From the NCBI GenBank assembly GCA_964387425.1, contig CAYLXP010000005.1:3209-67208 (forward strand): a stretch of 64,000 nucleotides of DNA. The letters run 5' to 3'. Shown here in pieces: positions 36,932 to 52,368 of the stretch; the stretch's first letter is position 1, and each line of letters opens with the position of its first letter. The notes beneath the pieces are model-generated. The model did no database searches. It was not told the origin of the DNA and saw only the letters and a list, made by a program, of their open reading frames with translations. Made by a program: the position numbers and the translations under genes. Source of the DNA: an uncultured Victivallales bacterium. Its GTDB lineage: Bacteria > Verrucomicrobiota > Kiritimatiellia > UBA8416.

Positions 36932-39283
36932 TCAAGGAGCGAGGTCGGTGGCCGCCTCGGAGGCGGCGCTCCAGTCGAGCTCGGGGAGTTGTACGCCTGA
37001 GGTTGCGGCGTGGTCGGCTAGGAGTTCGGCAAGTCGTTCGCGTACGCGGACCATTGTGCGATACCGTACGAGTCGGCTCTGGGCCAGCACGACGACCTCA
37101 ACGGGATCGTGGCGTTTTGGCCCCAATCCCAGGAAGCCCCTGCGTGGACGTTTCAACCCCAGGGCTCGAACAAGCGTCTCCGGGTCCATGCCGCTGACGA
37201 TGGCTTCGATGGCCGTGTCATCAGTACCCGGTTCAAAACGGATGGAGCGTTGCTGGTCCAGCTCTCCGTAGGAGACGACCAACTCGCACGTCTTCTCATC
37301 GACGTCGCGCAAAGCGATGCCAACGGCTGCACGCCGGGCAAAGGCGAGAGCTTCCTCCTGCTCCGAGACGCCGGATTCACCGGAGGCATCCGAGGCAGCC
37401 TCTTCTTCCTCTTCCGGTATCTCGGCCTGCTTCTCGCGAAGGTCGGTGGGGAGTTGCTCCGTCTCAACCTCCTGGGTTGCATCGAGCGTCTGCTCCGTGG
37501 TCATGATCTGCGCCTCGACCTCCTGCTTCAGACTCTCGTAGTGCTGGCGAAGAACTCTCTCCAGCTCGGATGCGTTTGACGGGAAGAGGCTGGCATAGAC
37601 CAGGTCGCGCTTCTTCAGAAAGGCCGCATAGCGGCTGTCGACCTCTGTCCGCCATGTCTTCCTGAGCTCGGCCAACGGCACGCCCGCTTCGATAGACTGC
37701 TTAAGATCGCCTTTCCACTTGTTGGCCAGCTGGAGAATCAGGGACTTCTGCTTAGCATGGGCTTCAGCGGCAGGCGCCACGAGGGCGTTGATTCGCTCCA
37801 AGAGCTGGTCTTCAGTCTCACTCAGAATGGGGCCGTCCGGCAGGTGCGTCGCTCCCAATCCTTGCCGGTTCACCACGAAGGTGTGGGCTTTCTCCAGCGA
37901 GTCAAAAGGATGCAGCGTTTCTGTAGCCGAGAGCCAGTCCACGATCCTGTCCTCGAGGCGTTCTATATCGCTCAGTTCCAGCAGAAGCGGGGCTGACTGC
38001 TCAGATGCAATCCGGTCGCGGATCCGGTCGGCGCGCTCCGCCAGGCACGTTTCCAGCATCTTCTCAAATGCGCTGCGGCAAGCTCCATCCTTGGAGAGAT
38101 GCATGACCAGGCGCGACTGAAGCGCCTCGCGATTGGCCCCCGTGATGTTGCGCGCAGCAAGATACGCCGTGGCCAGTTGCTCGCGCGCACCATCGCGGAA
38201 AGCATCCCGCAGTGCGGCCAGGCTCTTGGCACGATCACGATGTAGTCCGATGTCTGCGCGCAGCGCGGCCTCGAGATCGCTCTCTTTCGGCCAGTCACAT
38301 CCTGTCTCCCTGGTGAAGGCGGCCAACGCCGATCTCTCCAGCGCCTTGGCCTTCTCCTGTGCGAACAGATCGACGCGTGTGAAAACACCGTAGACTCGAA
38401 CGGCTTCATCCCGGTTGGGGCGCTTGCGGCGTTTCTCGGTTTCCTGGCGGGCGGCGTCTGTGAGCCCGGGTGTGATGCGCTCGGAAGAGACTGGGGTCGC
38501 GGCCTCGGGCAGGCGGGCTGCAGTTTCCACGGCCTTGATCTGCGCTTCGTATTGGTCTCCGAGTCCACCCAGCACCTGTAGAGCCAGCTGACGCAGACGC
38601 GTAGTGACTTCATCAAAGAGAGGCAGCTTGTCCAGTCCCAGCTCGCGCTGAAGCGTTGGTTCAAGCTTCAAAATATCGCTGCGCTTCAATGCACTTCCCG
38701 GCTTTAGCTTGCCCTCTGTTGCCAGATCTTCCAGCAGCGCGTCGGCACGTTCTTGTGTGGGATAGCCGACCCGCAGCGACGTTTCTCGCAGTTGCCGCTC
38801 AACGGCTCGTTTCCGAGCCCGTCTGTAGACCGGATCAGAATGACGCTCTACGATCTGCCGGACCGAGGTCTTGTAGAAGGTGTCGGGGGGCGTGCCCAGT
38901 GCGTTAAAGAGGGCGTCGCGTGTTACCGGGAGGGGGGAGTGTCCTCTTGCCGTCGTCAGCGCCTCCTCTTCGAGAGCCGCCAACGAGCGCTGGGCGCTCT
39001 CGCTGACGAGCGCGCGGCACAGGTTGGCGCTCTGCTTCGGGGCGGCATGGTTGGCGGGAGCCCCGAGCATGGCATCGTGCAGCTCGTCCTCCATGAGGAT
39101 GGAGGATTTGCCTTCGGCATCTTCAACCAGTCCATCCCGTCCCTCCGCCAGGGCCTCGGCCGCACTCCGCAGCGCCAGGATCTGCTTGGCCCGGTCTTTG
39201 GGGGAACTCTCCGCGCTATGGGAGTGTGTCGCGATTGTAGTTAGCGAGATTGCCAGGATTGCGAGCATCGATCGTGGGGTCAT
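36932..39283 (-). CDS. Large exported helical hypothetical protein, third gene of the ZorA/MotA-like operon
   Basis: 783-aa ORF; signal peptide MTPRSMLAILAISLTTIATHSHSA; ATGA overlap with the upstream gene. Confidence 0.8.
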   Translation of the reverse strand: MTPRSMLAILAISLTTIATHSHSAESSPKDRAKQILALRSAAEALAEGRDGLVEDAEGKSSILMEDELHDAMLGAPANHAAPKQSANLCRALVSESAQRSLAALEEEALTTARGHSPLPVTRDALFNALGTPPDTFYKTSVRQIVERHSDPVYRRARKRAVERQLRETSLRVGYPTQERADALLEDLATEGKLKPGSALKRSDILKLEPTLQRELGLDKLPLFDEVTTRLRQLALQVLGGLGDQYEAQIKAVETAARLPEAATPVSSERITPGLTDAARQETEKRRKRPNRDEAVRVYGVFTRVDLFAQEKAKALERSALAAFTRETGCDWPKESDLEAALRADIGLHRDRAKSLAALRDAFRDGAREQLATAYLAARNITGANREALQSRLVMHLSKDGACRSAFEKMLETCLAERADRIRDRIASEQSAPLLLELSDIERLEDRIVDWLSATETLHPFDSLEKAHTFVVNRQGLGATHLPDGPILSETEDQLLERINALVAPAAEAHAKQKSLILQLANKWKGDLKQSIEAGVPLAELRKTWRTEVDSRYAAFLKKRDLVYASLFPSNASELERVLRQHYESLKQEVEAQIMTTEQTLDATQEVETEQLPTDLREKQAEIPEEEEEAASDASGESGVSEQEEALAFARRAAVGIALRDVDEKTCELVVSYGELDQQRSIRFEPGTDDTAIEAIVSGMDPETLVRALGLKRPRRGFLGLGPKRHDPVEVVVLAQSRLVRYRTMVRVRERLAELLADHAATSGVQLPELDWSAASEAATDLAP

Positions 39284-40017
39284 TGCGAGTCCTCCCCCTG
39301 GTTGCCGCTACCATACTCATTGCGAACGGACGGCAATAGCTGCACGCCGCGTGATTCCAGTTCGCCGCTGACCTGGACCATCTGCGTGGCCAGGTCCCTG
39401 TTCAGATGTTCATCGCCGGGGGGTAGCTCCGCCACACAGCGTCCGATGACACCCCATTGCAGATCCTCCACGTGCGTCTTCCACTGTCGGCAGCGTTGCT
39501 GAATGTGGCCGAGGGCGAATTCCAGGCGCTCTCCATCGAGTTCCATTTCGGGGTAGTGCTCGACGAGCTCCCGGTAGGAGAGCACAACGTCGCCCTCGCC
39601 GCCTTCCGGCACATACGTCAGTGCCTGCTCCAACAGGTTCGAGCTTAGTGCCGAGACGTCGGCGAGCGGTTGTGTATTGGAGCAGAGGTGCGCGAAGCGC
39701 TGGTCCTGCGGCCACGCGCCGTTCCACTGTACACGATCCAATGACGGAAACTCCTGGATTGCGGCATCCTGTTCCCATGCTCCTGTCACGGCATCGATTC
39801 GCATCAGGAGGTACTGCTTCCATAGATCCATCACACTCGGGCCCTGCTGGCTGGATGCCATCAGGAGACGTGTGGCGATGGCCAGGATCAGCACGAGGGG
39901 GAGGGATATCTGGACGAGCACATCATTGGGGCTGAGCGCGAAGACCTTCTCCGGTCGCCCCTTTGCCAGCTCCTGGATGCGCTTGATGGCCTTGCGTTCT
40001 TGAGTTGGATTAGTCAT
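39280..40017 (-). CDS. Single-TM protein with an Asp at the start of the TM (MotB/ZorB/ExbD-like anchor) and an unrecognised soluble domain
   Basis: FALSPNDVLVQISLPLVLILAIATRLLM; overlaps the stop of the upstream MotA-like gene. Confidence 0.7.
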   Translation of the reverse strand: MTNPTQERKAIKRIQELAKGRPEKVFALSPNDVLVQISLPLVLILAIATRLLMASSQQGPSVMDLWKQYLLMRIDAVTGAWEQDAAIQEFPSLDRVQWNGAWPQDQRFAHLCSNTQPLADVSALSSNLLEQALTYVPEGGEGDVVLSYRELVEHYPEMELDGERLEFALGHIQQRCRQWKTHVEDLQWGVIGRCVAELPPGDEHLNRDLATQMVQVSGELESRGVQLLPSVRNEYGSGNQGEDSQ

Positions 40018-41092
40018 GGGATGCGCGCTCCTCGGCAAACGTGGAGAAAGCCTTGCGTAGCCGCGACCGTTCCTGCTTCTGCTGCCGGTTTCCTTCGCGG
40101 GCGGTTTCCCCGAGATCCTTGAGGGCTCCGATCATGACCGACTGGCCCGCCAGCTGCTCGCCGATGGCCGCCTGGACGCGGTCACCGGCGCCAACAATCG
40201 CGGTGTTCAGCGTGTTGGTATGCGCAGCTTGCTCCGTACGCAGTCCGGAGAGTTGCGTCAGGGCGTGCTCCAGCTTCTGGTCGACTCCCTCAACGGATGT
40301 CAGCCCTTCGGCACAGCGCTCCAGCGCCGTGCACATCCTGTTGACACCCTCGACAAGTTCGGCGTTCTGGGTCTCCAGGCGCTCGAGCTGCTGTGCGACC
40401 CGCTCCAGGGGGACCGGCTCAAGGCTGCGGGTGACTTCGCGAACTGTGCGGTCCATCCGGCCAAGTCCCTCGCAGAGCCGGTCGACGGTTGCTTCGAGGT
40501 CCTCGGGGAGTTCCTCGGCGATGTCGAGCGGTAGGCTCACGCAGAATAGCCACGCGAGCGGGCGGGCGGCGATGAAGGCGCCAATCAGGCCAACCAGGGA
40601 GCTCAAGACGGCGGTTGCGGTTCCGGACAAGAGGCGCTGTACTGAGTCCTGCACGGCTTCGCCCTTGAGTCCGGTGGAAGCGAGCGCCTCGACACCGCTG
40701 CTTTGGAGCCCGATCAGTAGCCCGTAGAGTGTTCCCGTTAGCCCCAGCATAATGAGGAAGAAGGCAAAGTGCGGTGGGTAGGGACGCCAGATCAATTCCT
40801 CGTCCACGTTGGCCCAATGGCGCCCAAGCGCACGGAATCCCTGTATGGCGGGAAACACGAACATCAAGAACGGCACAAGTGTCGACACGGTGCTCAGGTC
40901 TGCGGCGCACCGCAGTCCAAGGCTGTAGATGTTCGCCGGCAGAAAACGCGGGAGGAATGAGACGTCCGCAAAGAAGAGGCGGATGGCTTCCTCCACGTTG
41001 ACGACCCAGAGCAGCAGAAAGAACAGCGACAGTGCGGTGCAGATGGTGCTGATGACAGCCAGCAGCAGAGGGAAACGTCGTTTCTCCATCAT
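40010..41092 (-). CDS. MotA/TolQ/ExbB-family ion-channel protein with a long C-terminal coiled tail (ZorA-like)
   Basis: LIMLGLTGTLYGLLIGL and LLSGTATAVLSSLVGL helices, followed by about 170 aa of amphipathic helical tail. Confidence 0.75.
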   Translation of the reverse strand: MMEKRRFPLLLAVISTICTALSLFFLLLWVVNVEEAIRLFFADVSFLPRFLPANIYSLGLRCAADLSTVSTLVPFLMFVFPAIQGFRALGRHWANVDEELIWRPYPPHFAFFLIMLGLTGTLYGLLIGLQSSGVEALASTGLKGEAVQDSVQRLLSGTATAVLSSLVGLIGAFIAARPLAWLFCVSLPLDIAEELPEDLEATVDRLCEGLGRMDRTVREVTRSLEPVPLERVAQQLERLETQNAELVEGVNRMCTALERCAEGLTSVEGVDQKLEHALTQLSGLRTEQAAHTNTLNTAIVGAGDRVQAAIGEQLAGQSVMIGALKDLGETAREGNRQQKQERSRLRKAFSTFAEERASHD

Positions 41093-41322
41093 GGTTTCAC
41101 CCTTCAGTGATTCCACCGCGTGGCCATGCAGGCTACGCAGCAGTTGTTAAGCAATGCCAGAGCATAGCTCACTGAACCACGTGCGAACAATCTTTTCAGG
41201 CGATTTGACGCCGCGGGATGGATTGCTACGAGCCAGTTCGGATTCTGCGACGGGCAACGCAGAACGCCGGCTGCATGTAGGGTTTGATTGTAATGGCTTT
41301 GTTAGGGTACAGTTTCGAGATT

Positions 41323-42132
41323 ATGAGGCGCAATATCTCGGTTGATATTCAGCTTGAGCGGCATGAAGCGAAATATGTCGTGCCATACGACGTGGCGCGG
41401 AAGGCCGTTGAGTTTGCTGCTCCATTTTGCACGCCTGATCCGCACGGCAGCGGGACACCGGCTGAATATGTGATTACGACGCTACAGCTTGATAATCACG
41501 CCTTGAGTCTGCATCGAGCCAAGGAGTGGGAGGCCTATGACCGCTTCAAGCTGAGAGTCAGGACATATGGAGATCCCGTGGGCAATGCCCCGGTGTTCAT
41601 GGAGGTGAAGCAGAAAACCGGCGCCAACATCGTAAAGAGCCGCTGCCGCGTCCCGTTTGAGATATGGGGTGAGGATCTCATCCGGAATCCCGAGCAGATC
41701 ATGGGAGAGTTTGATTCGGAGGCCGAGCGTGACGGTTTTCTCAAGTTCGTCAGGCTGACCCGTGAGATTGGGGCGGAGCCTTTCGCGCTGGTCAGGTACA
41801 CGCGCGAGTCATATTTTGGCTGGAACGATCACTATGCACGCATTAGTGTGGACCGGCGTTTGCTGTATCAGCCGACACGCTCGTGGGATGACTGGGGGCG
41901 CAGCGGAAAGTGGCGTGCGATGGATACGACGACGGCGCAGGGCAAGGGCTTTCCGTATTCCGGCGTTGTCCTCGAGTTGAAAACGCTGGGTGATGCGCCG
42001 CTCTGGATGATTGAGCTTGTGGAGTATCTTGGTCTTGAGCGAATGGGGAACTGCAAGTACTCAACAGCAGTGTGGCAGGAGCTGATGTTCCGGGGCGATG
42101 CTGATCGCCTGGATCGGTTTCAGGGAATATAG
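41323..42132 (+). CDS. VTC (polyphosphate polymerase-like, CYTH tunnel) domain protein
   Basis: RHEAKY, RFKLRVRTYG, FMEVKQK, KSR, YTRESY, RISVD, VLELK, CKY. Confidence 0.9.
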   Translation: MRRNISVDIQLERHEAKYVVPYDVARKAVEFAAPFCTPDPHGSGTPAEYVITTLQLDNHALSLHRAKEWEAYDRFKLRVRTYGDPVGNAPVFMEVKQKTGANIVKSRCRVPFEIWGEDLIRNPEQIMGEFDSEAERDGFLKFVRLTREIGAEPFALVRYTRESYFGWNDHYARISVDRRLLYQPTRSWDDWGRSGKWRAMDTTTAQGKGFPYSGVVLELKTLGDAPLWMIELVEYLGLERMGNCKYSTAVWQELMFRGDADRLDRFQGI

Positions 42133-42143
42133 GGAGTATAAGG

Positions 42144-42827
42144 ATGGAAGAGTTTGTTAGTGCGCTTGGTGCTGCCCGCATGCTCAATGCCGAGCAGATC
42201 ATCTGCTCGCTGCTGATGAGTTTCGTGCTCTGTTCGATCTATGCGTTCATCTATCGGATCACGTTCCAGGGGCTGTCCTACTCCCGGGGATTCATCCATG
42301 CCATGATCCTGGGCGGCATGATAGTGGCCATGATGATTATGGCGATCGGCAACAACCTGGCCCGGGGCCTGGGCATCCTCGGTACACTGGCCATTGTCCG
42401 TTTCCGGACGCCGATCCGGGATTCGCGCGACATGGTCTTCCTTTTCGTATGTCTCGGCACGGGCATAGCCTGCGGGGCGGGGACATACGAGGTGGCCGTG
42501 ATTGGGACCGTGATGATCTGCCTGGTCGCGTTGCTCCTCAACTACTCCCCCTATGCGTCACGCCGAAACTACGAGGGACTCCTGACATTCGTGGTGCCTG
42601 CCGAGGCGGGCGCCGACCGGGAGATTACCGACGTGATGCAGCTATGCTGTGCCGCGTTCCACATGATCGCCATGCGCGAGGCCGTGCAGGGGGATGCGGT
42701 GGAGTACTCCTACCAGGTGCGGTTGCTGGATCCTTCCTATCAGCAGGAGTTGATTGAGAAGCTGGCCGCCATCGAGGGTGTTGAAAACGCGCAGCTGATG
42801 ATGCAGCGGACAACGGTGGAGCTGTAG
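42144..42827 (+). CDS. DUF4956-family membrane protein
   Basis: IGNNLARGLGILGTLAIVRFRTPIRDSRDM, GIACGAG; C-terminal ACT-like domain. Confidence 0.9.
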   Translation: MEEFVSALGAARMLNAEQIICSLLMSFVLCSIYAFIYRITFQGLSYSRGFIHAMILGGMIVAMMIMAIGNNLARGLGILGTLAIVRFRTPIRDSRDMVFLFVCLGTGIACGAGTYEVAVIGTVMICLVALLLNYSPYASRRNYEGLLTFVVPAEAGADREITDVMQLCCAAFHMIAMREAVQGDAVEYSYQVRLLDPSYQQELIEKLAAIEGVENAQLMMQRTTVEL

Positions 42828-42828
42828 C

Positions 42829-43950
42829 ATGAGAAAATCCTATCAGCGTGCCAACATATCGAGACATCCGAGGGTCATCATGGCCCGCATAAAGCAGGGC
42901 TGGCCCGTTGTCATCTGGATCCTGGCTGCGGCGGGGGCCGCCTTTCTCTACTTCCATTCCGGCAACTTCACGAGCATGACCGGTGCCGTGGTTGCCGTTG
43001 TAGAGCCCGTTGCGCCATTGCAGACAGGGCGCCTGCTCTCCCTGGAGGTCGCCCTGGGAGACCGCGTCAAGGCGGGCGATACGATTGCTGTCATGGATGC
43101 GTCGCTGCTGGATGCGCGCCTGTCGGTCGAGGAGGCCCGCATGATTGAGGCCGAGCAGACCGTATCTGGCTTTGAGCAGGGCATGATGCGCCTGGCGCTC
43201 GATGCCGACACGGCCCGGCATCGGGCCGAGCTTGAATTGCAGAACGTCAGAATGACGTACGAAGCGCAGCAGGCTGAACTGGCCGAGCTCAAACGCGAAC
43301 TGAAGCGCCGGGAGAGTCTGCTCGCGGCGGGGCTGGATGAAGCCAGCGCGGTGGCCGAGCTGCGACCGAGGATTGCCCAGCTCAGCAAGGAGATCGAGCT
43401 GTTTCCTGCTGTTGAGGAGATTAGCCTTAAGCGCGTCGAAGGTGCGATTCGCCAGATGGACGCGTTGCGAGCGTCGCTGGAGATTGACGCCGACGCGTCC
43501 GTACTGGAGTCCATCCGGGATCGGGCCGAAGCCCAACGGGGCGTTCTACGAGCGTCCATGGAAAGACGCCTGCTGGAGAAAGACACCTATGTGCTGAAAG
43601 CCCGGCGCGATGGAATCGTCTCGCGGATCTTTGCCATGCCCGGCGATGTCATTGGGGCGGGCGATGTGATCCTGCGGTTGGTGTCAGAGACGTCCGATTC
43701 CATCGAGGGGTTCCTGCCGGAACACTACATCGCGTCCCTCCACATCGGCCAGGAGGTTAGGATCGAACGCATTTCAGGGCAGGGGACCTTCAAGGCTGCC
43801 GTAACGGCGATCGCCCCCGAGATCCAAACCTTGCCGGGGCGTGTCAGCCCGATCCGAAACCAGCCCATCCGGGGACGTCGCGTTTTGCTTTCGATTGTTG
43901 GCGAGCATCCGCTTATTCCCGGTGAGACTGTAAGGGTGTTGGCGCGATGA
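42829..43950 (+). CDS. HlyD-family periplasmic adaptor / membrane-fusion protein
   Basis: N-terminal TM, split lipoyl motifs (VALGDRVKAGD; LKARRDGIV..PGDVIGAG), long coiled coil, ends LIPGETVRV. Confidence 0.88.
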   Translation: MRKSYQRANISRHPRVIMARIKQGWPVVIWILAAAGAAFLYFHSGNFTSMTGAVVAVVEPVAPLQTGRLLSLEVALGDRVKAGDTIAVMDASLLDARLSVEEARMIEAEQTVSGFEQGMMRLALDADTARHRAELELQNVRMTYEAQQAELAELKRELKRRESLLAAGLDEASAVAELRPRIAQLSKEIELFPAVEEISLKRVEGAIRQMDALRASLEIDADASVLESIRDRAEAQRGVLRASMERRLLEKDTYVLKARRDGIVSRIFAMPGDVIGAGDVILRLVSETSDSIEGFLPEHYIASLHIGQEVRIERISGQGTFKAAVTAIAPEIQTLPGRVSPIRNQPIRGRRVLLSIVGEHPLIPGETVRVLAR

Positions 43951-43984
43951 GGCAGGGCAATCGCATTTCGGGAGGCGCTGAATC

Positions 43985-45514
43985 GTGAGTACCGTTTCTC
44001 CATCCCTGCGTTTGCTTCTGCTGGGCTGTGTGATGGCGATGCCCGCCCACGTCTTGTCTGACGACGACATCGTGGTTGCAGACGACGTGGTGACCGAACG
44101 CGTGGTTGACCTTCAGACGTTGGCCGCACTGGTGATTCAAAATGATCCTGCGCTGGAAGCGTTCCGGGGAGCGATTGCCGATGCCGATTTCAGAGTTGCG
44201 GGGGCTGCGCGTGGGCGCGATCCCGAGGTTCGTCTCCGGTATGGGGAACTGAGTGGCTGGTCGGTGCCCGGTTCATACACAGAGACCTCGAGCGAGGCGA
44301 TCAAGGAGGACGGCCTGCCGTTCGTCACGAGTATGCGGGAGACCACCACCAGGGTGACGCCTCACAGTACGGGCGAAACCGTCGAAGAGACGGTGACGGA
44401 GTGGGGGTACCCGAGAAGTGAGTCTGTTGAACAGCGCAACTACGGTCGCGACGCTTATCCGGGGCGAAGCAGCTTCTCCGTCCAACTAAGGCTCTTTCCC
44501 AGCAATCCGTTCATGGAGAAGGCCGCCCGCGACCAGCAGGTTGCGGTCCGTGATGAAGCCAAGCTGGGACTGGAGACGGAGCTGCAGCGTGCGGCACTTG
44601 CCGTGGCACGCGAGCATCGCGAGATCCAGTTCATGCTGGCCGAGCTGAAGCTGATGCGGCGCCAGGCCAAACTGCTCACCGATGACCTCAAGGGTCTATC
44701 CGAGCTGAAGGCGGCTTTTGCCATCAGCCCCGTGGACTATCACAAGCGGCGCACGGAAGCGTTGATCTACCTCTCCCGGCTGAACGAGCTCAAGGGGGCG
44801 ATTGGCGATGCATCGGCCCGGCTCAAGGCCCGGGCCACGCTTGGCGAGAGCGACCGCATTGCGTTTGCCGGCAACCTTTATCCGCCCGGTGTGAATTTCG
44901 GACTTCTTGACCAGGATCGGCTGGTCGAGTTGGCGATGAAGCGCAATCCTGACCTGGGCTCAGTACGCGTCGCCAAGTCGAGCGTGGACAGTGACATCCG
45001 TGCGCACCGGGCTGAGAGCATTCCGTGGCTATCATCGGTATCGGTCAATGTTGGTGGCGACGACTCCGATAATGGTCAGACCCGGGATGAGTGGGGCGTC
45101 TATGCCGGCGTTAACCTCCCGGTTGGCGCGTGGCTTGATGGCAAATCGCGGCAAGCGCTCGAGTCGCGACGCAAGAGTCTTGACCGGCAGGAGCTTGCGA
45201 CGCGTTTGCAGCTCGAGTTCGCCGTCCGCGGTCTCTGCCAATCCATCGTGTCGGCCCAGTCCGACTGGGATGCCTACGCTGACGGTGCGCGGGCGACTAA
45301 GAGCGGCATCACGCAGCAGATGGAGTCCATCGTGGGCAATGACCTTACGACACGACGAATGCAGTTGGGCCTGAACGAATCACTCATCGAGATCGAGGAG
45401 CAGCGCATCAGGCTGGCACACCGGTTGAGCCTGCTGCTGTTCGATCTGTGCGACACCATCGGCTGCGACCTGGACCTTGTGCTGGCGACGGGCATGGCGG
45501 GTGCTTCGGAGTAG
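43985..45514 (+). CDS. TolC-like outer-membrane efflux protein
   Basis: Signal peptide; two repeats of AL..NP.L...(D)P.V.V with VNLP strand and coiled helices; follows HlyD. Confidence 0.78.
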   Translation: MSTVSPSLRLLLLGCVMAMPAHVLSDDDIVVADDVVTERVVDLQTLAALVIQNDPALEAFRGAIADADFRVAGAARGRDPEVRLRYGELSGWSVPGSYTETSSEAIKEDGLPFVTSMRETTTRVTPHSTGETVEETVTEWGYPRSESVEQRNYGRDAYPGRSSFSVQLRLFPSNPFMEKAARDQQVAVRDEAKLGLETELQRAALAVAREHREIQFMLAELKLMRRQAKLLTDDLKGLSELKAAFAISPVDYHKRRTEALIYLSRLNELKGAIGDASARLKARATLGESDRIAFAGNLYPPGVNFGLLDQDRLVELAMKRNPDLGSVRVAKSSVDSDIRAHRAESIPWLSSVSVNVGGDDSDNGQTRDEWGVYAGVNLPVGAWLDGKSRQALESRRKSLDRQELATRLQLEFAVRGLCQSIVSAQSDWDAYADGARATKSGITQQMESIVGNDLTTRRMQLGLNESLIEIEEQRIRLAHRLSLLLFDLCDTIGCDLDLVLATGMAGASE

Positions 45515-45571
45515 TTCAATCCCTGCGGCGTGTCTTCGCCTGGCCATTCAGGGATGACACATGGGGTTGAA

Positions 45572-45665
45572 CGAACATCGAACATCGAACGTCCAACACT
45601 GAACGTCGAAGTTGGGAGTCTCTCCCTTCAATGTTCTGTGTTCAATGTTCGATGTTGGACGTTCG
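45572..45665. repeat. Heptamer inverted repeat, copy 2, between convergent genes
   Basis: CGAACATCGAACATCGAACGTCCAACACTGAACGTCGAAG ... CTTCAATGTTCTGTGTTCAATGTTCGATGTTGGACGTTCG. Confidence 0.8.
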
Positions 45666-45674
45666 GCCTAGCTA

Positions 45675-46787
45675 CTACCCCTTCAACCCCGTCATCGAGA
45701 TGCCTTCGATGAAGGTGCGCTGTGTGAAGAAGAACAGCACAATGATGGGCAGCGCGACGATGGTGCTGGCGGCCATGAGATAGTGCCATTCCGTACCCCC
45801 GGACTGGCTCTGGAAGAACTGCAGGCCGAGCGCAAGTGTGAAGTCCTGCTGGTCGGTTAGATAGATCAACGGCCCGAGGAAGTCGTTCCACGTGTACATA
45901 AACTGGAAGAGACCGACGACCATCAATGCGGGGCGGCAAAGCGGCAGCATAATCTGCCAGAAGATTCTGAATTCGCTGCACCCGTCGACGCGGGCCGCGT
46001 CGGAGAGGTCTTTCGGGATGGTCAGGAAGAACTGCCGCAAGAGAAATACATTGAATGCGCCTGCAAAAAAAGCCCCCACCCAGAGTGGCCGCAAGGTCCC
46101 GATCCATCCGAGCCAGCGAAACATGCAGTAGAGCGGGACCATGACAACGGGGAAGGGGATCATCATCGTTCCCAGTGCAAGGATGAACACCTTGTCACGG
46201 CCTTTCCACGAGACGCAGGCAAAGCCATAGGCGGCCAGGGCGCTGGAGAGTACCGTTCCCAACACGGTCAAGAAGCAGAGGATGAGTGTGTTCTTGAGAT
46301 AGACCGGGAACATCCCCATGGCTTTGACCGCGTTAACGTAGTTCTTCCAGCGGAACGCGACCTTCCGGCTGATTGCGCTGATGGGGACTGCGATGCGGCT
46401 TTCGTCTTCTTCCGTTGATATCATCGCCCATGGGGCGTCGGGCGATGCGCTGACGGACTGCAGAACGGTGACGGGTTCCCCCTGCCCGTTCTTCAGAATC
46501 AACTTCCCTTCGCGGATGCTGGACTGGGGCACAACCAGTACTCGCGACTCACCGACGCGCTGTATCACGCAGGCAGGCTCTTCAATGGTGATGCCACGCC
46601 GTATCGGCAGTTGTTCTCCGTCAACATTCGCATAGAGCTGATAAGGGACCCAGGTCGGAGGGAGTGACATTGTCTGTTCAATCGGTTTCAGCGCTGTCGA
46701 GATCATCCAGACCAGGGGGAATAGAAAAATGACTGCCCCTCCCAGCAGGGCGGCGTAGACCATGAGTCGTGCTACAAGCCGCTTCAT
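45675..46787 (-). CDS. Carbohydrate ABC transporter permease (MalG-type) with a large periplasmic insertion
   Basis: FLLRQFFLTIPKDLSDAARVDGCS (EAA loop), WNDFLGPLIY, QRTFIEGI. Confidence 0.93.
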   Translation of the reverse strand: MKRLVARLMVYAALLGGAVIFLFPLVWMISTALKPIEQTMSLPPTWVPYQLYANVDGEQLPIRRGITIEEPACVIQRVGESRVLVVPQSSIREGKLILKNGQGEPVTVLQSVSASPDAPWAMISTEEDESRIAVPISAISRKVAFRWKNYVNAVKAMGMFPVYLKNTLILCFLTVLGTVLSSALAAYGFACVSWKGRDKVFILALGTMMIPFPVVMVPLYCMFRWLGWIGTLRPLWVGAFFAGAFNVFLLRQFFLTIPKDLSDAARVDGCSEFRIFWQIMLPLCRPALMVVGLFQFMYTWNDFLGPLIYLTDQQDFTLALGLQFFQSQSGGTEWHYLMAASTIVALPIIVLFFFTQRTFIEGISMTGLKG

Positions 46788-47674
46788 GCGTCACCTCCCG
46801 CGTAGTGGACGTATCTGCGGGAAAGTCGTGTTGCCAGCAGGGTAAGCGCCATGATGAGAATGAAGAGGACCCATGCCATGGCGCAGGCATATCCCATCTG
46901 GCGGTACTCGAACGCATTCTGAAACAGGTAGACGGCATAAAACAGGGCGGAACGGTTCGGCCCACCGCCCCCCAGCATGATGTAGGGTTGGGCGAATACC
47001 TGCAGTGATCCGATGATGCCCATAATGAGGTTGAAGTAGATCACGGGGGAGATTGATGGAATGGTGATGTTCCACAGCTTTGCCCACGCCGTTGCGCCGT
47101 CTATCTCTGCCGACTCGTACAGCGTGCGGGGAACATCCTGCAGTGCCGCCAGGTAGATGACGACGGTATTGCCGATACCCCAGAGCGACATGAGCACGAG
47201 AGACGGTTTCGTCCATTTCTCGTCTGCCAGCCATTGTGGCCCCTCGATGCCGAACCAGCTCAGTGCGTGATTGATCAGGCCGTAGCTACCGTTCAGGAGC
47301 CACCACCACAGGATGGCGCTGGCGACGATGGGGACGAGTGACGGTAGGAAGAATATTGTCCGGAAGATGGAGCGTCCCTTGATTGGCTGGTTCAGCAGCA
47401 CCGCGACCAGCAAGGATACCACCATGCCGAGCGGAAGAGAGAGCGCCGCGTAGTAGAGGGTGTTAACCAGGGACTTCCAGAAGACCGAATCCGTCACCAT
47501 GTCCCGGTAGTTGAGCGTGCCGATCCAAACGGGGCTTTGTAGCACGTCATAGTCACAGAACGAGAAGTAGACGGAGGCGACCAGGGGGTAGAGAGAGAAC
47601 GCAAGGAACCCGATAATCCAGGGGCTGATGAAGGCCAGTCCGGTGCGGAGGTTGTTGCGCTCACCGCGTGTCAT
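46784..47674 (-). CDS. Carbohydrate ABC transporter permease (MalF-type)
   Basis: FISPWIIGF, FRTIFFLPS, LYESAEIDGA, GYACAMAW; ATG at 47674. Confidence 0.93.
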   Translation of the reverse strand: MTRGERNNLRTGLAFISPWIIGFLAFSLYPLVASVYFSFCDYDVLQSPVWIGTLNYRDMVTDSVFWKSLVNTLYYAALSLPLGMVVSLLVAVLLNQPIKGRSIFRTIFFLPSLVPIVASAILWWWLLNGSYGLINHALSWFGIEGPQWLADEKWTKPSLVLMSLWGIGNTVVIYLAALQDVPRTLYESAEIDGATAWAKLWNITIPSISPVIYFNLIMGIIGSLQVFAQPYIMLGGGGPNRSALFYAVYLFQNAFEYRQMGYACAMAWVLFILIMALTLLATRLSRRYVHYAGGDA

Positions 47675-49076
47675 GAGTTCTCCATTCTTCCAATCGTTTG
47701 TCCTGGACGGCATCCCAACGGCGCATGACGCGAGCGAACTTCCAGCTGACGCGTTCCTGTACATCGTCGAGAGCCTCCGCGGCGCCGGCGGATTTGGCCA
47801 GGACGCGGTCAGCCGCCACCAGGAGCTCGCTCTTGTATTCGAACCACATGGCAAGCTGCGGGGTGCGCCGTGCCTGTGGACTCTTGGCCAGCTCAATGAA
47901 GACCTCAATCGCCGGGTTGGGGTGGCGCTTCACGAAGTCATCACTGTACTCAAGCAGGGGACTGAATTTGCGCTGTCCCAAGTTCAGCTTCTCAAGTGCA
48001 GGCCGGGTGTGAACGTACTTAATGAACTCGAATGCCTCGTCCGGGTGCTTTGCGCCACGCGGAATCACAAGGACATCAGATTCCGCGATCGTAACGTTCG
48101 GATAGCGTACGGGGTCCGACGACGGAAAGGGCGCTGCATTCCACTCGAGATGTGGCGCGTACTTCTGGATGAAGTTGTTCATCCAGGTTCCTTGCAGGGT
48201 CATCGCAACGCGCCCATCCAGAAACGGGTTCTGCGGTGACGCGAAGTTCCCGGAGGCGGCCCCGAATTTCCTCAGGTTGTCCACTCCATATTTTTCGGCG
48301 TACGATCCGACCCAGCGGTAGGCGGCCTGGACTCCCGGACTACTGGCCGTGATGGTTCGTTCTCCATCCCAGAGCTCGCCCCCAAACCACCAGCACCACT
48401 GTTCCATCCACCAGCCCGGCTCCTGGGGCAGGTGTCCAATCTGGATGATGTCGAATTCCTTGCCGGCTTGTTCGGAGGGCGTCAGTTCGGGGTAGCGTAG
48501 TCGAACGCGTTTGCCGTTTCGATTGACCTCAACGACGGTGAGCTGCTCGGTAAATAGCTCCAATTCAGCGAGAGAGCTGGGAGGTCTGTCGGGATCCAGT
48601 CCGGCATCGCGAAAGAGACGTTTGTTCCAATGCAGGGCAAGTGTTGCCGGCGCTGATGGCAGCCCCCACGTGAACCCGCGATGTTGGCAGAGCTGCCATA
48701 TAACGGGGATGTAAAGGTCCCCTGTGATACCTGCAACCTTCAGGCGTCCATCGAGTGGAATGAGCGCGCCCTTTTCCGCGAAGTCCGGGATATTCTGAGA
48801 CCAGAGTCCGGCTACATCCGGAGGATTGCCGCCGGCGGCTGCGAGCAGGAGCTTCTGATCGATCAGGCCGACACTCAGCATGCGTACTTCGATGCGATCC
48901 TGGGATGCGTTGAAGTCATCGATGACGGCCTGCATGGCTTCAGCTTCAAATCCCGTCCATTTCTCCCAGTAGTGAACGATGGTGCGCCCGCCGTTCGACT
49001 CCGATGAACGGGGGGCACAGGAGATTCCACAGGCGGCGATGAGCCCGGCGACCACAACTGTTCGAATGACATGCAT
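47661..49076 (-). CDS. Carbohydrate ABC transporter substrate-binding lipoprotein
   Basis: Lipobox-like Cys, GNPPDV, LHWNKRLFRDAGLD, FLDGRVAM..GTW, HPDEAFEFIKY. Confidence 0.92.
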   Translation of the reverse strand: MHVIRTVVVAGLIAACGISCAPRSSESNGGRTIVHYWEKWTGFEAEAMQAVIDDFNASQDRIEVRMLSVGLIDQKLLLAAAGGNPPDVAGLWSQNIPDFAEKGALIPLDGRLKVAGITGDLYIPVIWQLCQHRGFTWGLPSAPATLALHWNKRLFRDAGLDPDRPPSSLAELELFTEQLTVVEVNRNGKRVRLRYPELTPSEQAGKEFDIIQIGHLPQEPGWWMEQWCWWFGGELWDGERTITASSPGVQAAYRWVGSYAEKYGVDNLRKFGAASGNFASPQNPFLDGRVAMTLQGTWMNNFIQKYAPHLEWNAAPFPSSDPVRYPNVTIAESDVLVIPRGAKHPDEAFEFIKYVHTRPALEKLNLGQRKFSPLLEYSDDFVKRHPNPAIEVFIELAKSPQARRTPQLAMWFEYKSELLVAADRVLAKSAGAAEALDDVQERVSWKFARVMRRWDAVQDKRLEEWRTHDTR

Positions 49077-49191: not shown

Positions 49192-52100
49192 ATGAGAACA
49201 ATGATGAGAACGGTCCTATGGGTTGCCACGATGGCGTGGCTGGTTGGAAGCGCGAATGCCGGAGTAACGGAGCTTGGCGGCGGGATTGCCGTGCAGTTGG
49301 GCTGCGGAGACGGGAAGGCCCTGGTCAAGCTGGCGTCGGACGGCAACTGCCTCGTGCACGGGCTGGACAAGGATGCCGGAACCGTGGCGAAAGCCAGGGA
49401 GTATCTCCGTTCGAAGAAGCTTTATGGTGATGTGTCGGTGGCCGTCTACGACGGCAAGACGCTTCCTTACGGCGACAATGTCGTCAACCTGATCACGGGT
49501 GACAGCCTGGGTGGGATATCGAAGCAGGAGGCCCTGCGTGTGCTCGTGCCGGGCGGCGCCATGGTTATTGACGGCAAGAAGACGGTCAAGCCTTGGCCCA
49601 AGAACATCGATGACTGGCCCCAGTATTTGAATAAGGCCGACAACAATGCGGTGGCCATGGACTCCGTGGTCGGGCCGCCACGCCGCCTGCAGTGGATGGA
49701 CAAACCAATCTGGGCTCGCTCGCACATGGCGATCTCGACTACGATTGCCTTGGTTTCGGGAAATGGCCGGTTGTTCTCCATTGAAGACACGGCTCCCACG
49801 GCAAATCCCTACCTTCCGACGGCATTCAAGATCGTTGCCCGCGATGCTTTCAACGGGCGAACGTTGTGGACGCGCGAGATCACCAACTGGGACAGCATCA
49901 CGATGTATATCAAGTGCCTGCCGGTGCAGCAGCAGCGTCGCATGGCTGTTGCCGGCGACACGCTATATTGCACGTTTGAGCTCGAGGGCGCGGTTTCTGC
50001 CATCGATGCTGCCACGGGTAAGGTGCTGAAGGTCTACAAGGGCACGGATCCCACGCAGGAGCTTGCCTATGATGATGGTATTCTCTTCCTCAACGTGGGC
50101 GAGCGCTTTCCGTCGGCGGCGTACAACATCGTGAAGACGAAGGGTAAGCCGTTCGTCGAAGGCGTGGATCCGTCACAGCCGTTCCACGGCAGCGGTTTTC
50201 GCGAGGGGTACGATCCGGAGATCCAGGACAAGGAGAACCCGGTCAGTGTGATCATGGCCGTGGACCCGAAGAGCGGAAAGACACTCTGGAAAACGGAACC
50301 GCTCAATAAGTATACGGCAGCGACCCTTTCCATCAAGAACGGCCGCGCAGTCTACCAGACCGCGGACGGCGTGTTCTGCGTCAACGCCCGCACGGGCGAA
50401 TCGCTCTGGGCCAACAAGAAGCCGATCATGAATGCGCTGGGGCACGACTCCGGAACTCCGGGCACACTGCCCAACACGATGGTGATCACGGACGACAAGG
50501 TCTTCTCCGTGGAACAGAAAACCGACAAACCCCAGAAGGCGTCCGTTCCCAAGTACACGCTGCGCACCTACTCGGTTGAAGACGGTAAGCTCCTCTGGGA
50601 GGCCCCCGTGGCGGGGAATTACGAAGCGTCGGCTGACATTTTCGTGGTGCATGGATCCCTTTGGGTCGGGGGCGGGGCGGCACCAGCCCAGTACAACATT
50701 GAAACGGGCGAAGTCATCAAGACGGTGAAGCAGAAGATGAATGGCCCCATGGGGCATGACCGTTGTTATCGGAACATGATCACGGAGCGGTACTACATCA
50801 ACAGCAAGACCGGTGGTGCCGATTTCATCAACCTGAAAACGGGAGAAGAACTTCCCCATCATTGGACGCGCGGCGGTTGCGGAATGGGTGTTTTGCCCGC
50901 CAATGGGCTTCTCTACTCCACGCCCTATTCCTGTGTGTGCAGTGTGGGGTCTATGTTCCAGGGTATGAATGCTTTTGCGCCCGTCTCCGGGCTGACCAAG
51001 TCGAATGATCCTGTTCCTGTTTCCCGTTCGGTTCGCCTGGAGAAGGGGCCGGCCTACGGAAAGGTGCGTGATGGTGCTCCGGCCGGTGTCGATGATTGGC
51101 CGGTCTATCGCTGTGACGGCGCGCGCAGCGGTATTGCCACGAGCAAGGCAAGCTCCGGCCTGAAACCCAAATGGACAGCAAAGCTAGCGACCCGTGGTAG
51201 CGCCCTGACAAGCGCGGCCGGCAAGGTGTTCGTTGCTGATATCGACACGCATACGCTGTACGCCCTGGATGGCGGCGATGGAGAGACGGTTTGGCAGTTC
51301 ACCGCTGACGGGCGAATCGATTCGCCACCTTCCTACTACAAGGGCATGGTCTTCTTCGGTTCGCGTGATGGCTGGCTGTATTGCCTGCGCGCAACAGATG
51401 GTGAGCTGGTATACCGCTTCAAGGATCTGCCTGACCGGTTGATCTGCGCTTTCGGTCAGTTCGAGTCTGCCTGGCCGGTCTCCGGCAGCGTCCTGGTGCT
51501 GGATGGCAAGATCTACTTTGCCGCGGGGCACTCCTCGTTCCTCGATGGCGGGATGTTCCTCTACTGCCTCGACCCTGCAACGGGCAAGGTGCTTAACAGC
51601 CGTGGGGTCTACGGTCCGTTCGACGAGACAACCGGATTCCCCGTGGCGGCCAAGGGTGCTGAAGCCCAGGCAGGTTTCAAAAATGGGATACTGGTGTCCC
51701 GGGGGGATGGGATTCACCTGCGTCAGAAGAGCTTCGGCGAGGACCTCTCAGATGCCTCAACAGGGCAGCCTCACATCCTCCCCATCACGGGATTCCTGGA
51801 CGCTCAGCCGCAGCACCGCACCGGTTGGATGTTGGCTTCTTCGGTTCGGTGGTGGCAGAGCGGCGTCAAGGACATCCTGGTGTCTGACGGCACGGATGCC
51901 TATGAGGTCGAAGGGTTCCCGGTCTACCACAATCACTCCTACTTCGACCCCCGGCGCAGCGGATACAAGCTGATAGCATCAACCGCCGGCGCGCCGCCAC
52001 CCGCGGAACCGGAAAAACCGAAGCGTGGAGGCAAGTCCAAGAAGAAAACCAAGAGTCGCGGCTCACAGAGGTCGGAGAAGTGGCGCACGAATATTCCCAT

Positions 52101-52368
52101 CACGGGCAAAGCCATCGGCCTGGCCGGCGATGTTCTTTTCGTGGCCGGCGAACCGATGACATTCAAGGGTGATGTGTCGCACAAGACGTACGCCGACGCC
52201 TACGCCGGGAAGCTTGGTGGGCGACTGCTGGCCGTCTCGGCGACGGATGGAAAGACACTGGCCGAGTACAAGCTCAATGCCGCTCCCGCCTGGGATGGAA
52301 TCGCCATCGCCGGCGGGCAGCTCTTCATCAGCCTCGCCGACGGTTCCGTGCAGTGTTTTGGGGAGTAG
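49192..52368 (+). CDS. Exported PQQ-like beta-propeller protein with an N-terminal methyltransferase-like domain
   Basis: Signal peptide; GGIAVQLGCGDG...LPY.DNVVN; repeated A.D..TG..LW motifs; HDRCY and RGGCG motifs. Confidence 0.85.
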   Translation: MRTMMRTVLWVATMAWLVGSANAGVTELGGGIAVQLGCGDGKALVKLASDGNCLVHGLDKDAGTVAKAREYLRSKKLYGDVSVAVYDGKTLPYGDNVVNLITGDSLGGISKQEALRVLVPGGAMVIDGKKTVKPWPKNIDDWPQYLNKADNNAVAMDSVVGPPRRLQWMDKPIWARSHMAISTTIALVSGNGRLFSIEDTAPTANPYLPTAFKIVARDAFNGRTLWTREITNWDSITMYIKCLPVQQQRRMAVAGDTLYCTFELEGAVSAIDAATGKVLKVYKGTDPTQELAYDDGILFLNVGERFPSAAYNIVKTKGKPFVEGVDPSQPFHGSGFREGYDPEIQDKENPVSVIMAVDPKSGKTLWKTEPLNKYTAATLSIKNGRAVYQTADGVFCVNARTGESLWANKKPIMNALGHDSGTPGTLPNTMVITDDKVFSVEQKTDKPQKASVPKYTLRTYSVEDGKLLWEAPVAGNYEASADIFVVHGSLWVGGGAAPAQYNIETGEVIKTVKQKMNGPMGHDRCYRNMITERYYINSKTGGADFINLKTGEELPHHWTRGGCGMGVLPANGLLYSTPYSCVCSVGSMFQGMNAFAPVSGLTKSNDPVPVSRSVRLEKGPAYGKVRDGAPAGVDDWPVYRCDGARSGIATSKASSGLKPKWTAKLATRGSALTSAAGKVFVADIDTHTLYALDGGDGETVWQFTADGRIDSPPSYYKGMVFFGSRDGWLYCLRATDGELVYRFKDLPDRLICAFGQFESAWPVSGSVLVLDGKIYFAAGHSSFLDGGMFLYCLDPATGKVLNSRGVYGPFDETTGFPVAAKGAEAQAGFKNGILVSRGDGIHLRQKSFGEDLSDASTGQPHILPITGFLDAQPQHRTGWMLASSVRWWQSGVKDILVSDGTDAYEVEGFPVYHNHSYFDPRRSGYKLIASTAGAPPPAEPEKPKRGGKSKKKTKSRGSQRSEKWRTNIPITGKAIGLAGDVLFVAGEPMTFKGDVSHKTYADAYAGKLGGRLLAVSATDGKTLAEYKLNAAPAWDGIAIAGGQLFISLADGSVQCFGE

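Follow-up and report, generated by a model that had tools for sequence, protein, structure and literature searches.

The yeast VTC complex (Vtc4/Vtc3/Vtc1) is a polymerase-translocase for inorganic polyphosphate (polyP), and parts of a study of it describe positively charged rings at the mouth of its channel (bioRxiv 10.1101/2023.01.27.525886). VTC, DUF4956 and CotH genes also form a trio that, according to parts of another preprint, accompanies the Pel loci of Gram-positives as accessory genes (bioRxiv 10.1101/768473). The trio of Streptococcus intermedius is SIR_1592-1594, and deletion of its DUF4956-like and CotH genes reduced Pel-dependent aggregation by a mechanism that the authors, in the sections of the article concerned, left open (PMC12345266). 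Here we analyze a four-gene operon in a 64,000-nucleotide stretch of DNA from an uncultured Victivallales bacterium (GenBank assembly GCA_964387425.1, contig CAYLXP010000005.1, positions 3,209 to 67,208 of the forward strand; hereafter, the window), in which VTC and DUF4956 genes are followed by genes for a HlyD/EmrA-type periplasmic adaptor and a TolC-like outer-membrane factor (OEP). The four genes very probably form one functional unit, and a tie of the operon to CotH is likely. We give an even chance to the reading that the operon is a polymerase-coupled trans-envelope exporter that supplies CotH proteins outside the cytoplasm with polyP or a related phosphate product, and we think that it is an elaboration, by the two-membraned Planctomycetes-Verrucomicrobia-Chlamydiae (PVC) group, of the widespread VTC-DUF4956-CotH module. 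No description of the four-gene system was found in the searched literature, supplementary files lying outside the search. The operon reads as follows.

41323-42132, plus strand: VTC-domain protein, 269 amino acids (aa); PF09359 at 88.6 bits against a cut-off of 23, 6.1e-25 (Pfam)
42144-42827, plus strand: DUF4956 protein, 227 aa; PF16316 at 43.6 bits against 30.6, 3.3e-11 (Pfam)
42829-43950, plus strand: HlyD/EmrA-type periplasmic adaptor, 373 aa; HlyD_3 at 49.2 bits against 22.2, 1e-12 (Pfam)
43985-45514, plus strand: TolC-like outer-membrane factor (OEP), 509 aa; OEP PF02321 at 46.5 bits against 22, 4.8e-12

A first-pass annotation, made earlier from the DNA letters alone, had reported four tightly spaced genes without a transporter of the ATP-binding cassette (ABC), resistance-nodulation-division (RND) or major facilitator superfamily (MFS) type, and had named DUF4956 as the only polytopic inner-membrane protein. 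Open reading frames (ORFs) and Pfam confirmed the coordinates and the gaps of 11, 1 and 34 bp between the VTC, DUF4956, HlyD and OEP genes, all on the same strand; Pfam likewise detected no ABC, RND or MFS transporter among the four, and DUF4956, with five predicted helices, is the sole polytopic membrane protein of the operon. A TTG at 41284 offers an alternative upstream start for the VTC gene in an open frame, but the ATG at 41323 is the likely start because the alignments of relatives begin there. Promoter and terminator scans of 40900-45800 returned site counts no higher than those in shuffled sequence. The DNA occurs in DNA sequencing runs from two studies, labelled marine or seawater metagenome, which may be its source; no RNA run was among those listed.

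Conservation of the four-gene linkage carries the claim of a functional unit. In an order-level sample of 41 genomes, the source genome included, the VTC protein was matched in 15, giving 12 strong VTC places besides the window. VTC and DUF4956 occurred together in all 12 of these loci, and the adaptor was also present in 11 of the 12; the gene after the adaptor was an OEP in 9/9 relatives scanned with Pfam and in two more identified by tblastn at 54% identity. We then widened the comparison to the PVC group by searching with the DUF4956 alignment in a single genome of each species and taking the best 80 of 134 relatives, 12 of which overlap the order-level loci. The nearest DUF4956 relatives come from metagenome-assembled genomes of Kiritimatiellia, Victivallales, Lentisphaerae and Verrucomicrobiota. 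Genes of the relatives are our own ORF picks scored with local profiles built from the order-level set, a procedure that weak OEPs may escape. VTC was adjacent to DUF4956 in 79 of the 80 loci, the adaptor in 73, and an OEP on the same strand in 59, in the following arrangements.

VTC-DUF4956-HlyD-OEP: 55/80 loci
HlyD-OEP-VTC-DUF4956: 3/80 loci
OEP-VTC-DUF4956, the locus being cut by the contig end: 1/80
VTC-DUF4956-HlyD: 13/80 loci
VTC-DUF4956-HlyD with an OEP-like gene upstream on the opposite strand: 2/80 loci
VTC-DUF4956 alone: 5/80 loci
DUF4956 alone on a short contig: 1/80 loci

Three of the seven adaptor-less loci reach a contig edge, and the other four (L049, L051, L063 and L064) have at least 6 kb on both sides. 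Among the 13 loci that stop at the adaptor, five run out of contig and eight have room but no profile-detectable OEP. The linkage is kept despite drift, with identity falling to 48% for DUF4956, 42% for VTC and 27% for the adaptor. In a reverse test, the adaptor profile was run against 200 other genomes spread over the phylum and matched 15, of which 14 did so at E ≤1e-33; all 14 were VTC-positive. Sixteen adaptor places were fetched, of which 13 abut DUF4956 and VTC and two are lone HlyD-OEP pairs, one being a second copy in genome G102 and the other lying in G194, which carries VTC-DUF4956 on another contig. G032 shows a split arrangement, with VTC-DUF4956 beside a giant CotH gene on one contig and the orthologous adaptor (E 5.2e-82) with an OEP on another, flanked on one side by a fucosidase gene and on the other by a ceramidase-like gene. 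The order-level loci, the 80 PVC loci and the reverse test all agree that the linkage is conserved. The arrangement recurs in 11 of 12 order-level loci and in most of the 80 PVC loci, and is far beyond chance.

The surroundings of these loci were also searched for a canonical transporter. We clustered 471 further ORFs of at least 100 aa from the 80 loci, and no recurrent ABC, MFS or RND gene was among them. The largest neighbour family (10/80 loci) had no Pfam match in 3/3 members scanned, and the second comprises giant proteins in 7/80 loci, of which the three scanned carry LTD, CotH and Fn3_assoc. When the closest ORF to either side was picked, 130 ORFs were obtained; after exclusion of 21 longer than 700 aa, 109 were scanned with Pfam, and the commonest family was NTP_transferase, in five, while no transporter family appeared in two or more among the best 25 of the 93 families. 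The lone HlyD-OEP pairs in G032, G102 and G194 likewise had no adjoining transporter gene. In contrast, the non-orthologous adaptor of G142, the weakest adaptor match, adjoins ABC_tran and ABC2_membrane genes, which indicates that a canonical partner is detectable by this method when present. The HlyD-OEP pair thus travels without a canonical transporter, both in the surroundings of the operon and when split from VTC-DUF4956.

The VTC domain is the only Pfam match of the first protein and spans positions 1-231 of the 235 in the profile. Its structural model (predicted local distance difference test, pLDDT, 91.4; predicted template modelling score, pTM, 0.88) found polymer-bound yeast Vtc4 as its best solved match (3g3q_A, E 7.7e-14, template modelling score, TM, 0.67). 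The top ten among the structure matches listed were all VTC chains, and the best non-VTC tunnel enzyme stood at 8.2e-7. Consistently, a 76-sequence VTC profile matched yeast Vtc4 chains at 1.8e-9, Vtc2 at 9e-5 and Vtc3 at 1e-3 to 2e-3. Residues were paired by profile alignment in the Vtc4 numbering of chain 8i6v_E, and conservation was read over the 76 VTC sequences. R13, K17, R78, R80, K96, K105, Y159, R161, R173, E218 and K220 pair with Vtc4 R196, K200, R264, R266, K281, K294, Y359, R361, R373, E426 and K428, respectively, and each is invariant in all 76. Parts of the yeast study list K200, R264, R266, K281, R361, K458, S457 and Y359 as triphosphate ligands of Vtc4, E426 as an Mn ligand, and K458 as the single difference between active Vtc4 and inactive Vtc2/Vtc3 (bioRxiv 10.1101/2023.01.27.525886). 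Among tunnel enzymes, the operon protein therefore comes closest to Vtc4, the active polymerase, whose substrate-binding residues it keeps, and from sequence and model we regard it as a Vtc4-like cytoplasmic tunnel enzyme and a candidate polyP polymerase. Used as single queries against solved structures, the VTC and DUF4956 sequences returned chance-level rows only, and no longer fused protein containing either was found at E ≤0.001, which is weak evidence. The source genome (a 5.0-Mb assembly in 209 contigs) holds a single VTC and a single DUF4956 gene; it gave three PPK2 matches, accounted for by one gene and one frame with two PPK2 domains, and PPK1 (PF02503) had no match in this 88.8% complete assembly.

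DUF4956 is the best conserved of the four proteins (48-90% identity over 78 sequences) and is 227 aa long in nearly all relatives. It represents a distinct, tightly conserved 227-aa subfamily that ends in RTTVEL throughout the order-level set, and its nearest protein clusters, among them some from Calditrichota and Chloroflexota, all carry PF16316. The model (pLDDT 75.1, pTM 0.54) places helices at 16-40, 48-68, 71-85, 94-112 and 115-134, followed by a beta-alpha-beta-beta-alpha-beta unit at 143-223. A Foldseek search with the model gave no match at E ≤0.001; only the C-terminal unit matched, weakly, to ACT domains (best E 2.2e-3, TM to target 0.6-0.7), and the DUF4956 profile found nothing better than chance-level rows among solved structures. 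Judged from the model helices and the positive-inside rule, the N-terminus would be periplasmic, and the ACT-like domain would be cytoplasmic together with an Arg-rich loop (R86, R88, R92 and R95) in the invariant Gly/Arg-rich stretch G69-D96. By analogy with the yeast channel, such an Arg-rich cytoplasmic mouth would suit a polyanion, and we regard DUF4956 as a candidate conduit or anchor in the membrane. The protein also matched MgtC in Pfam (23.3 bits against a cut-off of 31.4, 8.6e-5) and the NCBIfam MgtC/SapB model PRK09977 over residues 67-217 (23.9 bits against 214, 2.7e-5), both below the cut-offs. In the relevant parts of the S. intermedius article, the homologue SIR_1592 is given four MgtC-type membrane segments and an intracellular ACT domain, and MgtC is presented as a regulator of phosphate and ATP-synthase functions (PMC12345266). 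A VTC-DUF4956 complex prediction with paired alignments of 75 rows each scored 0.01 against a mark of 0.32, a result that speaks neither for nor against binding.

The adaptor has further Pfam matches to HlyD_D23 and Biotin_lipoyl_2, and in NCBIfam it resembles EmrA/EmrK (2.5e-15, 56.2 bits against 390.8) and type I HlyD (1.6e-11), both below the subfamily cut-offs. It has a basic tail at the N-terminus and a single membrane helix, together with lipoyl and barrel parts and a hairpin region of ~145 residues; EmrA and HlyD, which serve pumps that lack large periplasmic domains, are built in this way. Only 10 residues are invariant in 23 sequences, and two of them, W25 and W30 where the membrane helix begins, may mark a conserved contact within the membrane. 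The outer-membrane factor matches PF02321 in two stretches and the NCBIfam TolC family at 1.8e-4, below the cut-off, and begins with a signal-peptide-like start containing LLGC.

The first-pass annotation had noted that CotH, a frequent neighbour of these families, was missing. That holds for the window but not for the genome, where eight CotH frames of 1769-2802 aa lie on contigs other than that of the window. At least six of the eight begin signal-peptide-like, and the four scanned all carry LTD, some with Calx-beta, Laminin_G_3, Big_7 or CHB_HEX_C in addition. Across the 41 order-level genomes, VTC and CotH occurred together in 14, VTC only in one (G018, 84% complete), CotH only in one (G022) and neither in 25; across the 200 phylum genomes, the corresponding counts were 31, 0, 12 and 157. 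VTC presence tracks CotH, an observation new here, with both families patchy across many families of bacteria whose members, as kin, are not independent. Close by, CotH was confirmed adjacent in seven of the loci from the 17 VTC-positive phylum genomes that lack the adaptor (20 neighbouring proteins scanned), and the VTC-DUF4956-CotH trio was also found in the order-level relatives G012 and G038. Since VTC tracks CotH, the likely purpose of the operon shifts from plain polyP secretion to the supply of extracytoplasmic CotH proteins.

Two side observations concern the CotH proteins themselves. CotH is expanded in G031, G023 and G040, with 28, 14 and 11 matches, nearly all in frames of 1400-3700 aa, and one VTC match each. 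In the source genome, a C-terminal domain of ~70 aa, often ending FYR[IL]-like, is common to seven of the eight giant CotH frames, with the frame on contig C79 aligning poorly. A profile of this domain matched 25 open frames, mostly at the very end, eight of them being the CotH frames used as input; the frames lie on contigs C55, C66, C113, C129, C39, C32, C128 and others. The domain looks like a sorting or anchoring tag.

Taken as an exporter that serves CotH, the operon would work as follows. The cytoplasmic VTC protein would polymerise the gamma-phosphate of ATP into polyP, or a closely related phosphate product, at the face of the inner membrane. DUF4956 would partner it there in place of an ABC, MFS or RND transporter and would move the product across, and the HlyD/EmrA-type adaptor and TolC-like channel would then take it over the periplasm and the outer membrane. 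Giant exported CotH proteins would use the product, for instance as their phosphoryl donor in surroundings that lack ATP. In the first-pass annotation VTC and DUF4956 had been proposed as a replacement for the transporter; the genomic predictions of that proposal that could be checked held, while polyP synthesis, passage through DUF4956 and assembly of the four proteins, like product use by CotH, are steps that we infer. In a stricter version, which is possible but doubtful, the operon encodes a polymerisation-driven secretion machine in which polyP passes through an oligomeric DUF4956 pore and a HlyD-TolC duct, and surface CotH uses polyP instead of ATP. CotH proteins would then be polyP-dependent extracellular kinases or polyP transferases.

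Several points weigh against a polymerase-coupled exporter. Tunnel enzymes also include triphosphatases and cyclases, and E15 is invariant in the 76 sequences where Vtc4 has T198, at what we take to be the second Glu position in the CYTH ExExK motif, so that hydrolysis by the operon protein is conceivable. The discriminating K458 of Vtc4 is matched to the invariant K245 by spacing only, the alignments ending at Vtc4 447-450: the invariant C244-K245 lies 27 residues past E218, and K458 lies 32 past E426, or 28 once a 4-residue Vtc4 insert is subtracted, and a C-terminal VTC profile aimed at K458 gave no match among solved chains. The VTC protein has neither an SPX domain nor the membrane helices that form the yeast channel, and a report of activity for any bacterial VTC-domain protein was not found in the searched literature. 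DUF4956, for its part, resembles MgtC, which is described as a regulator and not as a channel, and its model is of middling confidence (pLDDT 75, pTM 0.54). Genomic points count as well. The four adaptor-less loci with ample flanks lack HlyD and OEP, eight loci have room after the adaptor but no adjacent OEP detected, and 17 of the 31 VTC-positive phylum genomes are without an orthologous adaptor, mostly with VTC beside DUF4956; the duct is therefore not required in every diderm carrier. Twelve CotH-positive phylum genomes lack VTC, and because the relatives are not independent, the counts overstate the number of separate events.

An unlikely alternative is a tripartite exporter with a new motor, in which VTC hydrolyses ATP or triphosphate, DUF4956 transmits the energy, and another cargo, a small molecule or a glycan, is exported. 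The conserved linkage and the missing canonical transporter fit this explanation equally well, many tunnel-fold matches are hydrolases (ygiF, AtTTM3 and thiamine triphosphatase), and the Glu at E15 in place of Thr points the same way. However, both fold and profile place the protein much closer to Vtc4 (7.7e-14) than to the hydrolases (8.2e-7 or weaker), every polymerase ligand that was mapped is invariant, and we know of no tunnel enzyme that acts as a transport motor. A gene of the phosphate-selective porin family stands next to VTC-DUF4956 in G180 and points to a phosphate cargo, as a lead only, from one of 18 loci. Given its weak matches to MgtC and its ACT-like domain, a type that binds small ligands, DUF4956 could instead form with VTC a sensing or regulatory pair in phosphate metabolism, MgtC-like, that controls a HlyD/TolC duct whose cargo comes from elsewhere. 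The S. intermedius homologue, with its MgtC-type membrane domain and ACT domain, and the link of MgtC to phosphate regulation, as parts of that article describe them, agree with this idea (PMC12345266). We nevertheless hold it to be quite unlikely: the MgtC matches fall below curated cut-offs, the adaptor and OEP would still be left without a transporter gene for reasons unexplained, in the operon or standing alone, and the active-site residues of VTC are invariant down to 42% identity, which argues for catalysis.

That the HlyD-OEP pair serves a canonical transporter (ABC, MFS or RND) whose gene lies elsewhere, and is placed beside VTC-DUF4956 for co-regulation only, is very unlikely. Pumps can share their adaptors and outer-membrane factors or have them encoded at another site, a partner could have gone unseen because the genome is 88.8% complete and in 209 contigs, and some loci have an adaptor without an adjacent OEP. 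Against this stand the adjacency of the adaptor in 73/80 loci, three loci that reorder the genes yet keep the linkage, the 13/16 adaptor places that abut DUF4956 and VTC, and the 14/14 genomes with an orthologous adaptor that are VTC-positive; furthermore, the lone pairs in G032, G102 and G194 have no transporter neighbour, and the method did find an ABC partner beside the non-orthologous adaptor. The co-occurrence of CotH with VTC could also be read to mean that the operon secretes the giant CotH proteins in the manner of a type I system, VTC and DUF4956 standing in for the ABC component. Like many type I substrates, these proteins are very large and rich in repeats, and giant CotH-family genes abut the operon in 7/80 loci (the three members scanned carry CotH). 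Nonetheless, this explanation is scarcely probable. At least six of the eight CotH frames start signal-peptide-like, and the C-terminal domain of seven of the eight ends ~25 frames, most of them non-CotH, which together suggest Sec export plus a separate sorting route; moreover, VTC-DUF4956-CotH trios exist without a nearby adaptor or OEP, and in Gram-positives.

Other genes were seen beside relatives of the operon. In 10/80 loci (for example L063:4672-6108, L047:4034-5467 and L107:4273-5688), the gene immediately before VTC, in the same orientation, encodes a member of a family of ~475 aa; these loci include both L063 and L064, where adaptor and OEP are absent. Members of the family are Arg-rich and of low complexity in the N-terminal region, carry a Cys2-His2-like motif and lack a signal peptide. 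Such a very basic cytoplasmic protein beside a putative polyP polymerase might be a polymer binder. We considered the 473-aa upstream family as an alternative outer-membrane part and rejected it on account of the missing signal peptide, the Arg-rich N-terminus, the Cys2-His2-like motif and the lack of a Pfam match. In G075 (L149:7596-10462), a distant DUF4956 gene is followed by a distant HlyD-family gene (4e-14 with the local profile, 6.8e-8 with Pfam HlyD_3) and then by one for a YwiC-like membrane protein, and no OEP gene adjoins them; DUF4956 may here be paired with an adaptor for a second time, separately from the operon. The porin gene of G180 (L148:8508-9719; Porin_O_P, phosphate-selective porin O and P) directly follows VTC-DUF4956 in one of the 18 loci of its set, and a 1317-aa CotH protein is encoded divergently upstream of the pair.

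In the window, the operon is flanked upstream by three divergent genes on the minus strand (36932-41116; 783, 252 and 368 aa) without Pfam matches, the 368-aa gene giving ZorA-like NCBIfam matches (best 1.4e-4, far under the cut-off). They were rejected as parts of the system, having no Pfam match and no counterpart in the loci of 12 relatives. Convergent with the operon is an ABC sugar-importer set on the minus strand (45675-49076), consisting of an SBP_bac_1 binding protein and two BPD_transp_1 permeases, which was found beside the operon in 0/12 relatives' loci. Downstream of the importer set lies a 1058-aa ORF on the plus strand (49192-52368).

If the exporter reading is true, bacteria would have a VTC-type polyP polymerase, and both this question and that of how secreted CotH-family kinases could act in an ATP-free compartment would become testable. 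So would the role of DUF4956, a neighbour of VTC and CotH in many phyla that is seldom named in the searched literature. The rules for tripartite exporters would widen to an adaptor and TolC-like channel served by a component that is not ABC, MFS or RND, and release of polyP or phosphorylation of the surface matrix by marine PVC bacteria would bear on phosphorus cycling.

Compared with the yeast VTC complex, the operon encodes a cytoplasmic enzyme together with a membrane partner, and its VTC protein shares the tunnel fold and the triphosphate and Mn ligand residues of Vtc4. The Arg loop of DUF4956 (R86, R88, R92 and R95) recalls the positive rings at the yeast channel mouth. The operon differs from yeast in that its VTC protein carries neither SPX nor a fused three-helix membrane domain and has E15 for T198, that DUF4956 gave no DUF202 match in Pfam, and that the system sits at a bacterial inner membrane with an adaptor and an outer-membrane channel added. 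Like the Pel-locus trio, it has adjoining genes of the VTC and DUF4956 families and a tie to CotH. In contrast to that trio, however, the window operon has no adjacent CotH gene, the CotH proteins being giant (1769-2802 aa) and encoded in eight copies elsewhere; it further includes genes for a HlyD-type adaptor and a TolC-like OEP, and its DUF4956 belongs to the distinct 227-aa subfamily.

MgtC/SapB proteins resemble DUF4956 in layout, with roughly five membrane helices ahead of an ACT-like domain in the cytoplasm, and they give weak full-length profile matches, but DUF4956 scores below the curated cut-offs, and to our knowledge MgtC does not occur beside a polymerase or an adaptor. Synthase-dependent secretion, as of cellulose, alginate and Pel, offers a working analogy only, with a polymerase at the cytoplasmic face, a membrane conduit, an outer-membrane exit and polymerisation as the drive; here the polymer would be inorganic, and the parts are of the efflux-pump type instead of a tetratricopeptide-repeat scaffold with a porin. 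No homology is claimed. Finally, as in the tripartite exporters HlyBD-TolC, EmrAB-TolC and MacAB-TolC, a TolC-family outer-membrane factor gene stands beside that of an adaptor with lipoyl, hairpin and beta-barrel parts, whose single N-terminal helix is as in EmrA and HlyD. Unlike those exporters, the operon encodes no ABC, MFS, RND or PET-class transporter, and a tunnel enzyme and a five-helix MgtC-like protein stand in its place. We rate the operon as a new variant that joins two known kinds of system, the tripartite exporter and the VTC polymerase-translocase.

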